A DNA stretch of 64,000 bases from Eledone cirrhosa (Eukaryota). The notes below the pieces were generated by a model. That model ran no database searches. It saw only the letters and a list, made by a program, of their open reading frames with translations, and was not told the DNA's origin. The DNA lies in the NCBI GenBank assembly GCA_964016885.1, contig OZ024742.1:67022001-67086000 (forward strand), in the 5' to 3' direction. Positions 10,041 through 48,480 of this stretch are shown one piece after another. Each line of letters opens with the position of its first letter. Position 1 is the first letter of the stretch. A program made the translations under genes and the position numbers.

Positions 10041-10290
10041 ATGTTTAAAATAGAAATGGCTTCTACAGGGCTACATCTGTTTCATTCAAAATAAATCATC
10101 AGGAAAGACAACATATCACATGTTGAGGATATGTTGTGATACGTAAGGAATAGTATGTCAAGAAATAGATAGCTGCTGATTTCTTCTGAATGAAACAATT
10201 CTAGTTCTGTAGAAACCATTTCTATATCAAAATCCTTCTTATACTCTACTAATGTATGAAGTTCCTTACTAAGTGCGATTGAATTCGGAA
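10041..10290. mobile_element. Older inverted pLTR insertion of the same family as 18722-18917, with two hammerhead copies
   Basis: Minus 10061-10105 reads ttc CTGATGA tttattttgaat GAAA cag..ctG TA gaa. A decayed plus copy lies at 10173-10215, followed by a tail (ttatactct...ttccttact) homologous to the reverse complement of 18722-18790. Confidence 0.7.
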
Positions 10291-11241
10291 CTTTTACACA
10301 CACACACAGACACACACACACACACACACACACACACACACACACCTACACACACACACACACACACACACACACACATATATATATATATATATACATG
10401 CAGTTTTAGTTCAATAACACCGGTGGAACTTTCGTTTCAAGAAGTACTAACAGACGCAATGCTTTTTTTGTTTTGTTTTTTTCCGATCATGAAATGTAGC
10501 ATCTGGTGTCTTAGTCCTATGAATACGTAAAAGTGTCAGCAAGCTGAAACATTCGAGATGATAATGACCACACTGTTGCTCCGTATTTGGAGGGATGGAA
10601 AACATACTTCCGGCCAGGAGTCGAACAAGATGATATAAATACGTAATTTTCCCATTGTTCAGCCAACGAACGAGAACTTGTTTTATCTGAAATTGAGTAG
10701 AATCTTGCTCACGTCTTAATTAATCTAGTTAATTTCAAAGGAGAATTTCTTAGCACAAACAGGAAATGCAATGTTTATGACATAGCTGCAGTTTGTTGAA
10801 ATATCAACCTGTGACTATGGTAATCAACACTTGATTATATACCGTGGTCGTGGAGGCATGTGATAAGTATGGCAGAGCTGCGACCAGTTATGATTGTTTC
10901 CCCCACCAGTCCGAAATGGTAGGGCCACCGATGCAGCTGCTCACTATGAAGTACTGCCGAAGAAGTGGTTGGATATAGACCAGAGTTTGCTTTAACCGTA
11001 TCATATTTACTCTTCGCCCCTCTCTCTCTCTCTCGCTCTCGCTCTCTCTCTCTCAATCTCTCTCTTTCTCTCTGTCTCTCTCACTCACTCACTCAAATAT
11101 ACGCTCGTCCGTTTGTCTAATAAAGCAGAATATTTTCACCGATTGTTATACGAGATGGTGATTTTGAATCTTTCACTACGCATACATACATGTAAATCTA
11201 TGCGGTATACAATCATATTTATATACATGCATACATATATG

Positions 11242-11854
11242 CATGGTGGCTGCCAACACGTTTTCGAGTACGGCCACTACTTTATATGTAGGAGAACCCC
11301 TACCGATGCGCTGAACGAGTGTGAATTTTTAGTCCAGCCAGCGACTTGAAAACTCTGGTAGGTACAAACGCTACACTTGTGACAATTATTGACACATAGT
11401 GCTGGGCCCATGGTACCATGTGATGATAAGTGCAGAGAGATCTCCAGATATAAAGCAATGCCTGTGCCGTGAAGCTTTTATAGTGAGCAAAGGCACTGCA
11501 CAAAGCCAGTCCCACTCTCTTAACCAAGATGATATTTACCAAAAAGAAAAACAAGTCAACATCATTGGATACCATCAGGGTTGCAGGTGTTATATCAGAG
11601 TTTTCCTTCTCCTAGAATTCTGCCTTGACAAAGGCTAAGGGGTCATCTCTCCCGGTGATGTTGGATGGCCATTGACTCTTAAGAGCTCCTTTGCCCTTTG
11701 ACAGGTTTTGTTTTTAGTCCTGCAGGATGTCCAAAGTCACCCTCCTCACCAAGAAACCTTGGTGGGGTTGCCAGTTTAGTCGCCAACGACTCGACCATGA
11801 GACAGGTTGTACTGGGATACATGTTACCAGTAGCACCAACTGGTGACCTGACAT
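11242..11854 (-). mobile_element. Bipartite non-autonomous RTE-derived retroelement (longer copy)
   Basis: Reverse complement of 2094-2526 plus an extra internal segment at ~11452-11633. Carries the RVFKSLAGLKIHTRSAH finger remnant. Confidence 0.7.
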
Positions 11855-44385: not shown

Positions 44386-45990
44386 ATCGAACCAACATAT
44401 ATATAGTAGTGGCATTAAATCAGAACAACAACAACAATACTAACAATGATAGAAATAAATTAGTTGAAATAATCACATCAATCTAAGTAAGACATAGAGT
44501 ATACTTATGACTTTAGCATGTAAAACGAGCTGATATGAGGCAGATGTATGAAATTGACATATAAAAGCTGTCATGGGGTGTATTATATATAGTGTAGAGA
44601 TAGGCTGGGGCTTTAAACAATGTGCCATTTCCTTTACCGTAGGTTTGCTGATCGTAAGAATTATTTATTATCTGGCAGATAATAATTTTCATTGTAGTGA
44701 GGATAGTAATTTTTATGTGGTGTAAAGCGGATTCAATATTTAAGTGGTCTATATTAGATGAAGGGATTGTTAGTTCGAATCATGGGATTGTTTAGCTTTA
44801 CATCATCGATAACATGCATGTATAAGATAACACCAACAGAGTAGCAATATAATAGGCAAGTTAATACAGAGGTTAAGGAAGCAATATATATATATATAGA
44901 GAAAACATGCTGACTACAATTATAACAACAGGAGGAAGGTGATGTTTTACGGACTGTGGTAGTATTCTAATAATGTACTTGGATTTAGGTTCATCTCTTG
45001 AGAATCAAGGGTGAGGAAGTTGTGGTGACAGCAGCTGAGAAGAGATATATGTATGGGTTGATAAGATAATTGCAAACATTACTGTGGTATAGAATTAAGG
45101 AGGCTAGAAGCTGCTTAACGAATATTATAGACTGTGGTGGTCTGTGTGAGAGTGTGGATTTCATATGTTAAATGCTCAGTTCAGCATTTAACATATGAAA
45201 TCCACACTCTCACACAGACCACCACAGTCTATAATATTCGTTAAGCAGCTTCTAGCCTCCTTAATTCTATACCACAGTAATGTTTGCAATTATCTTATCA
45301 ACCCATACATATATCTCTTCTCAGCTGCTGTCACCACAACTTCCTCACCCTTGATTCTCAACAGATGAACCTAAATCCAAGTACATTATTAGAATACTAC
45401 CACAGTCCGTAAAACATCACCATCCTCCTGTTGTTATAATTGTAGTCAGCATGTTTTCTCTCTATATATATATATTGCTTCCTTAACCTCTGTATTAACT
45501 TGCCTATTATATTGCTACTCTGTTGGTGTTATCTTATACATGCATGTTATTGATGATGTAAAGCTAAACAATCCCATGATTCGAACTAACAATCCCTTCA
45601 TCTAATATAGACCACTTAAATATTGAATCCGCTTTACACCACATAAAAATTACTATCCTCACTACAATGAAAATTATTATCTGCCAGATAATAAATAATT
45701 CTTACGATCAGCAAACCTACGGCAAAGGAAATGGCACATTGTTTAAAGCCCCAGCCTATCTCTACACTATATATAATACACCCCATGACAGCTTTTATAT
45801 GTCAATTTCATACATCTGCCTCATATCAGCTCGTTTTACATGCTAAAGTCATAAGTATACTCTATGTCTTACTTAGATTGATGTGATTATTTCAACTAAT
45901 TTATTTCTATCATTGTTAGTATTGTTGTTGTTGTTCTGATTTAATGCCACTACTATATATAGAAGCCATGCCTGTGTATTCCCTTCATTC

Positions 45991-46109
45991 TCGCAAGCTC
46001 TGATGAATTTACTGGTTATAACTATGTATTGGTGATCGATTGACGCAGAAACAGGCGGGTAGCGATATCTAGACCAACCAGTTCAGAGAAACAATTGTCA
46101 GCAATGTGA
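45991..46109 (+). ncRNA. Hammerhead in PLE pLTR (inverted copy 40790-40908)
   Basis: tcgca-a-gct CTGATGA ..actggtt...aaccagt.. GAAA caatt GTC agc-aa-tgtga. The base of stem II is decayed relative to the 23135 copy. Confidence 0.75.
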
Positions 46110-48480
46110 TTAAAGCGCTTATTGTATAGCAAATCGTGTCACATTTCTTTCTTCTTTCTTGATATATATATATATATATATATATATATATATATATATA
46201 TATATATATATATATATATATATATATATATATATATATATATATATATACATATATATGTATATATATATAAAACATATAAACATATATATTATGTGTG
46301 TATGTATATATGCGGGAACAGATCATGTATCTCTTTCTATCTTTCTCCCTTTCTCTCTATATATACATATGTATATATATATATATATATATATATATAT
46401 ATATATATATATATATATATATATATATATATATATATATATATATACGTGTGTGTGTGTGTGTGTGTCTATGTGTGTGTGGGCGTGTGTATGTGTGTGT
46501 GTGTGTGTGTGTGTCTCTATGTGTGTGTGGGCGTGTGTGTGCGTGCATGTGTGTGTGTTTGTGTGTCTATGTGAGTGTGAGTATGTCTACATGTATGGTT
46601 TGGCTTAAAGCAAAATTAATTTATGAAAGTTGTATACTTTATGAATCTTCGGAATAATGATAAAATGAGAGAAATGTTTTTGTCAATTATGGAACCAGGA
46701 AAACTGTAATATATGAAGACAATTGCATTAAGTAATGAAAGCAACCATTTTAGGAAAATAGAAAGGAAAAAATACAAGATAGATAATACGTTACGAGGTA
46801 TAAAGTGGATATTTGTAAAACTAATAATATTATATCACAAGAACATTATAGAATTATAATTTTATTTTGAAAATTACATAGACTTTTTTGATTATGCCGG
46901 AAGTTTATAAACGTAATATGGAAATAGATGGATACGGTGGTATAATAGATAGGTGTCTAGTTTTGGTTGAATTTGATTTGAATATTATTTGTCAGGGTAA
47001 TTTTCCTTTTTAATATGGATTTATTTAACTGCTATTGAAGTGTGTTGTAAAATATAGAACGAAAATGAATTTCTGTAAATACCAATTTATAATTTTAAAA
47101 TTGTGGTGATAACGTATATGATAAGCGTTGCCAATATTCTATAAACTATGAAATGTTCAAACCCGGAAAGAGAACATCAGTAAATAACGATCTATATATT
47201 TATTGAAACGAACGGACTAAAAGGATATATAGAGACAAAGTTGAGTATAGGTTGTCTAACTATATCATACGAGTTAGAGGAAAAATAATATGAGGGGAAA
47301 ATATATTAGAATTATTAAATGAAGTGGCAGATGATATGCTGCTATAAGTTGTGCACCTATATTTATATCTTCTTCTCCATATTGTTCTTTGGACACCTAT
47401 TCCTGAGAGGGCCGTGGGGAAAAATCCTCAAACATTCATTCCGGTGGGTCAGTCAGAAATATCCGTTGACGAGATTGGCCTTCTAGAAAGAGATTCCTCT
47501 TAGAAATTTTCTCGGCTCCCTTTGAAAGCTTTGTGCAATTTAAAACACTTTATTTATCGATAAAGTGGCACATCCATAAGTTTCTTTTAAACAATATTTC
47601 AGTGGCACATCTGATGAGTTTCATACAAAATTAGATTGCGTACCCTTGTCCGATATATCCCTGCATCGTAAACATAACAAAGGTAATAAACACTTCTCTA
47701 CATAAACAGTAACAACTCACGTCTGATTAAATCAATCATGTTGAAACAAATATGGACGTGCAGACAAAATAACAACCAATACACCTATGTACATCAACGA
47801 GATACTTCGGTATCATGGCGTACATAGGAAAATTAGTTCTTTTAGTTCTATGAGAAAGCTCATATAATTATATACCCTTTTGCATGAATATTTACCGGTC
47901 GTCTGCTCCTCCATAACTTTAGGATATGCTTTAAGTATTATGCAACATTCTTTATATATTATTTCCATATTTTGTAAATACTGTATTTGATATTCATATT
48001 CAGTTACTCCGCCAAAGAAAGATTGCTGTTATACATCAGACCGTTGAATAAACTTGTTCTATATTTCTGTGAGTAGACGATACAGCACGGATGTATCACC
48101 CTTGGACATATGTCTGATACGCACACACATACACAAACACTCGAACACACGCATACACACACACACACACATACACACACACACACATACACACACACAC
48201 ACACATATATATATATATATATATATATATATATATATATATATATATATATATATATTTCGGAATAACAGAAAACAAATATCAGACAAACGCAGGTGCG
48301 AATGTTACTAATATTACTAGTTTCACGCTTGGTGAGAGTTGAGGGTGTGGTTGCAACGTTTCGGGCCTAAGCAATTCATAGGGAGAGGCGAGGGGGGAGG
48401 CCTCCGAGAAGGAATGAGGGGGGAGTTAATGAGATAAAATAGTGTGTATATATATATATATATATATATATATATACATA

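Follow-up and report, generated by a model that had tools for sequence, protein, structure and literature searches.

The inverted insertions found in a 64,000-nucleotide (nt) stretch of the Eledone cirrhosa genome (assembly GCA_964016885.1, contig OZ024742.1, positions 67,022,001 to 67,086,000; hereafter the window), a region of AT-rich, microsatellite-rich animal DNA, raise the question of why their two arms stop at different, repeatable points. Our study identified eight such inserts (A to H), all of which carry an extension on one end only (8/8). Judging by their anatomy and motif matches, they are 5'-truncated copies of Hydra-clade Penelope-like element (PLE) retrotransposons, whose lopsided ends represent the PLE tail. 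We consider it probable that the ends of Hydra-clade PLEs are set by two hairpins in the leader of the element, and that priming from both ends of the cut target gives rise to the inverted insert with its tail.

Inserts A and B belong to one family, are about 77-80% alike and have different 5' break points. Their features are the following:

21054-23307: insert A as a whole, with the long arm (antisense) to the left and the short arm (sense) to the right; both ends at (TA)n.
21054..22389, minus strand: long (tailed) arm of A, comprising the C-terminus of the open reading frame (ORF), the 3' untranslated region (UTR), the hammerhead and the tail; terminates ...cccg at (TA)n.
21054..21221, minus strand: tail of A, 168 nt.
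21079..21125, minus strand: second conserved hairpin of the A/B tail; the A/B long end lies about 26 nt beyond it.
21149..21217, minus strand: bulged hairpin module of A (ACTC-CAAG...CTTG-TT-GAGT), beginning 4 nt past the short-end point.
21284..21383, minus strand: type I hammerhead of the A long arm, from a descriptor scan; cut after 21284.
22390..23307, plus strand: short arm of A, 97.7% identical to the long arm over 901 nt; terminates ...cctgatttat at (TA)n.
23145-23244, plus strand: twin copy of the A hammerhead.
40571-46164: insert B as a whole (5.6 kb), arranged like A, with the long antisense arm to the left of the short sense arm; both ends at (TA)n.
40571..42245, minus strand: long (tailed) arm of B, extending into the endonuclease coding region.
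40666..40734, minus strand: bulged hairpin module of B; the read-supported short end, 40739, lies 4 nt ahead.
42246..44385, plus strand: broken, 5'-truncated, Hydra-type ORF of B, with several stops and frameshifts.
44400..45180, minus strand: inner inverted duplicate of the first 780 nt of the right arm of B, inserted 14 nt past the stop codon.
45181..46164, plus strand: short arm of B, 98.3% identical to the left arm, with a hammerhead at 46000-46099; terminates ...cttgat at (TA)n.

A sequence-only reading of this locus had claimed that the short arms of A and B end at a homologous point, about 60 nt past the ribozyme site and about 170 nt before the long end. Our coordinates agree closely with this: the two ends are 4 nt apart, that of B (which follows a 9-nt slipped duplication) falling before the point used by A; the type I hammerhead cut lies 61-63 nt before them; and the tails measure 168 nt in A and 172 nt in B. 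The core of the A hammerhead, CCGAAGA, is one change from CUGANGA. According to self-comparison, the arms overlap over 901 nt in A and 974 nt in B, and a 17-nt duplication at the inversion joint of A opens its short arm. The other six inserts are laid out as follows:

10041..10295: insert C, short arm on the left (hammerhead 10064-10102, minus strand), long arm on the right; tail 64 nt.
18722..18917: insert D, long arm 18722-18853 (minus strand; hammerhead cut at 18811, module 18765-18783), short arm 18855-18917; tail 67 nt.
2734..3641: insert E, lopsided; tail 180 nt; module 4 nt past the short-end point.
7005..7266: insert F, lopsided; tail 65 nt; module 4 nt past the short-end point.
27952..29135: insert G, a tailed inverted arm, a tailed middle copy and a tail-less right copy, with hammerhead; tail 87 nt; module 11 nt past the short-end point.
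29912..30354: insert H, lopsided; tail 77 nt; module 2 nt past the short-end point.

A homologous end position had likewise been claimed for the short arms of C and D, and their ends (10041 on the left of C, 18917 on the right of D) do correspond to within about 3 nt; they lie 64-67 nt short of the long arm, the corresponding distance in A and B being 168-172 nt. With uniformly distributed ends, the rough joint chance of the A/B and C/D coincidences would be 9/1070 x 7/130 = 4.5e-4. The further claim that both ends of each insert are fused to TA repeats stands for seven of the eight ends; it does not for the long arm of C, which stops at 10295 in (AC)n and is about 13 nt shorter than its counterpart in D; the two arms of C are only 81% alike. 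Symmetric fold-backs with TA on both sides were absent from the window self-comparison. It is hardly credible, and already largely refuted, that the inverted arms arose by later rearrangement, by misassembly or by the copying of a single master hairpin: although B does contain a secondary duplication and a probable conversion, the eight inserts represent six unrelated-looking families with different centres and with arms 81-99% alike, and the same layout recurs in other organisms and in sequencing reads.

The element just past the short end is a bulged hairpin that we call the module (RCTC-stem-loop-stem-2-nt bulge-GAGY). The short end lies 2-11 nt ahead of it in all eight lopsided inserts of the window (8/8), the module of C being decayed and placed about 7 nt past the short-end point. 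A scan of the window that required at least 4 pairs in the upper stem gave 8 matches, 7 of them in such tails, against 1.8 in shuffles, and one that required at least 3 pairs gave 12 matches against 5.3 in shuffles (maximum 12). It is important to note that the motif was defined after the tails in the window had been inspected but before any relatives were fetched, so that the relatives constitute an outside test.

The assignment to the Hydra clade comes from B, which carries DKT, the reverse transcriptase (RT) core YRDD, CxCx5C, GIY-YIG, CxxC and CxH. In this insert DKG is changed to DKT (KADKTS near 42350), and the CxCx5C linker reads CNCHLPDRC and is followed by HYIG..R..H of the C-terminal GIY-YIG endonuclease; the C-terminal frames of B and A show, by eye and across frameshifts, CRLC..E and CRH around a conserved E and N, and no CCHH. 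A canonical hammerhead was found by descriptor scan in the pseudo-long terminal repeat (pLTR) of B, which is inserted in (TA)n. Since the available text of PMC8557442 names DKT, the CxCx5C linker, CxxC plus CxH, a canonical hammerhead and (TA)n targets as marks of the Hydra clade, we assigned B to it. B is without its N-terminus (the RWK region; RW[K/R/Q] is present in 8 of 12 protein matches of at least 600 amino acids), and A terminates in the same C-terminal coding sequence. No coding sequence is present in inserts C to H, which are placed in the clade by hammerhead and module only. By BLASTP, the endonuclease stretch of B matches a full-length relative (P0008) at 2e-21, and the best protein match to its RT is a mis-named Octopus sinensis protein, which points to a cephalopod as the likely host. 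Pfam gave no family for the CxCx5C/GIY-YIG stretch, a homolog search with the endonuclease stretch among longer proteins returned none, the exact 25-nt pattern had 0 matches in metagenome contigs, and no relatives were found in viral contigs. Two other classes were rejected: a Naiad PLE, for which an N-terminal endonuclease and no hammerhead would be expected, disagrees with the domain order and hammerhead of B, and a miniature inverted-repeat transposable element or DNA transposon disagrees with the unequal ends and the RT remnant. Marine sequence data contain far more of the Hydra clade than the 27 families given in the accessible part of PMC8557442: in the P0028 search, 1017 of 8000 scored candidates reached E 1e-50 or better. 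Loci L079-L085 are Hydra-type retroelements on contigs of bacterial genome records and probably represent animal host DNA in bins.

The outside set comprised 85 Hydra-like loci from other organisms, with 38 tandem junctions in which a hammerhead is followed by an ORF start. Exactly two modules were present in 32 of these 38 tandem leaders, one in 4 and, under the strict rule, none in 2. The modules are spaced 55-74 nt apart (about 63 nt), and the second lies at a median of 23 nt upstream of the ATG. As the arrangement of these loci shows, the relatives use a tandem transcript as template, one that passes the hammerhead and continues into the 5' leader of the following unit; the same is presumed for the window families. 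The long end had been taken for the true 3' end; in the relatives its counterpart falls within the 5' leader of the following tandem unit, immediately ahead of the second hairpin, and that part of the sequence-only reading is not supported.

Matching of leaders to loci produced 33 end rows, from which 3 read-throughs and 6 contig ends were dropped, leaving 24 mapped ends. Eighteen of these lie 0-7 nt before a module (11 before module 1 and 7 before module 2), compared with about 10% expected, and all of the TA-joined ones do so (14/14). Such an end is found in 11 of 14 families, 2 of which use both sites, and ORF-bearing sense copies end at either module site. Of 12 end candidates for which no leader was matched, 6 end ahead of any module, 5 have passed exactly one module and end 27-40 nt beyond it, and 1 is a read-through. 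The mapped positions in the relatives thus place the ends 0-7 nt before hairpin 1 or hairpin 2, a relation seen in the window for the short end; consequently, the long end probably marks a second internal start, in the leader of the following unit, and the tail would be one hairpin unit. In C, D, F, G and H, as well as in the fragment at 56657, the long end lies 53-75 nt beyond the start of the module; this matches the module spacing of the relatives and would be expected if an unseen second module came next. The hammerhead cut was itself considered as the end point and rejected, as it is 22-160 nt away and varies by family. Among the published Hydra consensi, the end is 30-48 nt from the cut in 10/24, 63-153 nt in 13/24 and 355 nt in one.

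Pairing is preserved within the module. The first pair above the 2-nt bulge is paired in 46 of 46 modules (33 C-G and 13 T-A, from 25 leader clusters) and the next two in 34/46 and 30/46; 0 of 2000 partner shuffles reached the observed pairing, other bulge sizes gave 0-30%, and more than one candidate 5' strand exists in only 4 of 68 modules. A gap-free alignment of 11 equal-length modules, several of which are close relatives, has 98.7% paired cells and both-side changes in 3 of 7 pairs; a MAFFT alignment of 29 mixed-length modules failed to align the 5' strands and was left unused. Rfam gave no family for 12 of the loci with leaders. The module might instead act as DNA, either as a cDNA hairpin or as a duplex site bound by the GIY-YIG endonuclease, so that the ends would be cut sites a few bases ahead and not starts. 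The constant Watson-Crick nature of the first pair above the bulge, wobble counts that favor neither strand, the strong conservation of the letters GAGCACT and the need of the D. virilis endonuclease for the tail in recognition (as cited in the available text of PMC11167929) would all fit this proposal, which we nevertheless regard as improbable: a loop that varies from 5 to 60 nt and a one-sided bulge suit a single-stranded fold and not a duplex site, and the UA-rich patches ahead of the modules suit primer pairing.

These patches could also be read to mean that microhomology is all that matters, with (TA)n primers pairing at any UAUA and the hairpins being bystanders such as promoter or translation elements. 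UA runs of at least 4 precede 25 of 44 modules but only 8 of 88 control windows, most ends show a junction overlap of 2-6 nt, and the inner duplicate of B begins at an internal TATATA. However, module 2 is used although only 7 of 22 module-2 sites have a run of at least 4, the longer TA run at 41425 in the UTR of B has no loose-end row among the matches listed, and four mapped ends (L017, L033, L038 and L042) use the same sites in non-TA flanks; we therefore find this explanation very improbable. The ends in non-TA flanks also speak against the special role that the sequence-only reading had given to self-complementary (TA)n, as does Adineta, where, according to the portions available of PMC3846280, an inverted pLTR plus tail occurs together with target duplications of the ordinary kind.

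Reads from the same or a related species support the internal end point of A and B. Four public runs were compared with the B long arm (three contig sets of one sample, and restriction site-associated DNA (RAD) reads); they share only about 0.2 of the query words, so the source may be a related species. Depth approximately doubles from the tail bin to the bin just upstream in 4/4 runs (31k to 63k, 29k to 85k and 41k to 95k in the contig sets; 470 to 1089 in the RAD reads), where it should be considered that contig depth is not copy number and that the conserved hammerhead may inflate the step. Among the rows listed (24 of 746), 336 RAD reads (a read count, the loci behind them being uncounted) exit the element at 40739, the point used by A, into (TA)n with mixed flanks and an agreement of 0.62, and 25 contigs exit at 40565, the long end. 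Peaks in the RAD reads that coincide with AATT and GCATGC words (40711, 40803-40805 and 40904) are probable restriction cuts and were set aside.

In the account that we consider probable, the PLE protein would bind the hairpin, and its endonuclease would cut both strands of an AT-rich target. Each target 3' end would pair by 2-6 nt with the UA-rich patch ahead of a hairpin and prime cDNA there. One start before hairpin 2 and another before hairpin 1 would produce two cDNAs of the same region, which would be joined head to head into an inverted insert with the hairpin-1 unit left as a tail on one arm. End points would then be programmed by the element, and inversion would be optional. The strictly programmed inversion proposed earlier does not agree with the loci: the related loci are mostly direct tandems, and both ends are short in one of the inverted inserts (L082 1211-5020). 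The two-site priming also proposed there is supported in its two fixed end points, and the inserts are likely to have arisen by priming at both ends of the target, given that the 1.6-kb B sense ORF (42246-43875) has no template in the left arm and that dual priming has a precedent in vitro (PMC11167929, in the text available). It does not hold in the form known from L1 twin priming, in that the arms repeat the same 900-970 nt; such a duplicated region requires two RNAs, a tandem RNA or re-copying.

A rival account is fold-back followed by resolution: only the long arm would be copied from RNA, its 3' end would snap back, and the second arm would be a DNA copy that stalled or was nicked before hairpin 1 and was joined to the other target end. 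The arms span the same interval, self-priming has been proposed (PMC3846280) and the tail has been ascribed to endonuclease resolution (PMC8557442), both in the accessible text of these papers. As a general explanation, fold-back is unlikely, because there are sense copies with an ORF that end at the module-1 site although their contig carries no inverted template, the 1.6-kb B sense ORF has no counterpart in the left arm, and, according to the available text of PMC11167929, both start sites of the Poseidon element PAc function as RT starts in vitro. Nevertheless, the centres of D, F and B (45180) are near-perfect palindromes, which independent cDNAs explain poorly and which suggest fold-back in some inserts; it may account for small hairpins and coexist with dual priming.

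Other observations also weigh against dual priming at two leader hairpins. First, 6 of the 24 mapped ends are off the rule, 3 of them matched at only 85-87% identity, and the L082 insert with two short ends, which lies within an inverted flank duplication, is not lopsided; two clean long/short hairpin inserts at the same locus do favor the account. Second, the distance from module to long end is 164 nt in A and B and 176 nt in E, far past the spacing of the relatives despite larger loops. The second hairpin of the A/B tail, possibly a variant module, suggests that in A and B the long end may be located beyond module 2, close to the start codon, or that there are three modules; a complete leader of these families was not found. 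Third, the modules are related by descent, so that the shuffle counts are not probabilities; G-U and A-C counts (8 vs 7) do not tell RNA and cDNA apart; and the folding energy of the whole leader clearly beats shuffles in only 2 of 8 cases. Finally, B is not a clean single event: its arms have 12 of 18 private bases in common in the UTR and 1 of 19 in the ORF parts, which indicates that B was converted later or built from two templates.

A more specific version of dual priming is an RNA ruler, in which the two tandem bulged hairpins would each seat one RT-endonuclease and both enzymes would prime the two ends of a double-strand cut at once; we offer it tentatively and consider it rather doubtful. 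A dimer prediction for the first 470 residues of a relative, in which the alignment was not used, scored 0.01 and counts neither way. If the ruler were true, inverted ends and tail would be the normal, programmed product of a two-enzyme integration step, and it would be a third way to position reverse transcription. The cases for comparison are the 3' stem-loops of long interspersed nuclear elements and the template boundaries of telomerase.

Several features of the window lie outside this argument. The 44400-45180 duplicate interrupts the B sense copy at its exact resumption point, which fits polymerase fold-back on the product and a return to the template. A single-arm hammerhead insert at 40158-40452 (plus strand), in the same TA cluster as B, ends ...ctccgattatg, 168 nt past the cut; since this distance is close to that from cut to ATG in the relatives, the end is possibly at the start codon. 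Single-arm hammerhead motifs also occur at 58100-58240, 59312-59460 and 19010-19240 (all minus strand), the first two ending about 40 nt past the cut in (TA)n, which is the short-end distance. Tail-only fragments lie at 56657-56744, 23356-23380 and 7290-7447, and two of them bear the module; the 25-nt fragment within the right TA array of A indicates that TA arrays are hit repeatedly and that empty sites need not be pure (TA)n. The fold-backs at 49049-49549, 1158-2095 and 9812-10010 have no recognised module and no canonical hammerhead. A PLE remnant at 60900-63318 (plus strand), with a decayed copy at 6467-6897, ends at (TA)n and has the RT core YVDD as well as a cysteine motif ahead of YIGET; it looks Neptune-like from its motifs. 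An Rfam scan of the window gave chance microsatellite matches only and left the hammerheads unreported. Outside the window, L044:147-311 represents a family with a single module and a short leader, whose sole mapped end is 9 nt after the module and off the rule, and the two-module DNA pattern gave 120 matches in genome contigs that resemble chance matches in bacteria and were rejected.

The lopsided inversion alone would be ordinary. Standard PLE anatomy, in the available text of PMC3846280 and PMC8557442, comprises a truncated copy in inverted orientation that bears a tail of 30-40 bp at one end, and our inserts share with it the inverted 5'-truncated copy beside a sense copy, the one-end extension and the hammerhead in the pLTR; they differ in the tail, which measures 64-180 nt in the window. 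Since the asymmetry is the published tail, which has been tied in vitro to two internal RT starts, the basic pattern is already known. What is probably an undescribed cis signal is the duplicated hairpin that predicts both Hydra-clade end points: no description of it appears in the literature searched, which did not extend to subscription papers such as Arkhipova 2006 and Evgen'ev and Arkhipova 2005, to Repbase reports or to the PAc supplementary figures, and the accessible text of PMC8557442 has 0 matches to hairpin, stem-loop or bulge and names no hairpin signal for the tail. An octopus member is listed in the same text, where 4 copies are noted to share one end site; the hammerhead of the window families differs by eye from that of this member, so they represent other families. 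We also recognised the module by eye in the published consensus tails of Hydra-2_Amil and Hydra-2_Ajap and twice in the 5' leader of Hydra-1_Ajap, whereas a two-module leader and its tie to the ends are not described in that part of PMC8557442.

The available text of PMC8557442 states the origin of the tandem or inverted ends and tail of PLEs as open, and only one PLE has been studied in vitro. A covarying duplicated hairpin that predicts both ends within 7 nt across many families would be a concrete cis signal to mutate, move and graft; it would show RT starting at internally marked sites of a tandem RNA, with a bearing on the relationship between PLEs and telomerase. The hairpin rule would also help curators to define Hydra ends, as the published consensi fall in two distance classes. 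In L1, both target ends prime cDNA and an inversion results (Meyer et al. 2010, PMC2837659); as far as the text available goes, each arm there derives from a different part of one RNA, there is an internal deletion and the internal site varies, whereas in the window the arms duplicate the same region (901 nt in A and 974 nt in B) and both sites are fixed, so that L1 twin priming does not describe them; any target-site duplication around the window inserts would be hidden in the (TA)n. A further comparison is with PAc: its protein cuts and extends both target strands in vitro, and its tail is delimited by two internal RT starts (Frangieh et al. 2024, PMC11167929). PAc resembles the Hydra elements in its AT-rich targets and in a start associated with a stem-loop; in the available text, its starts lie inside the ORF, a short distance apart in one AC-rich stem-loop, whereas the Hydra ends lie in an untranslated leader, ahead of two separate, repeated hairpins about 63 nt apart.

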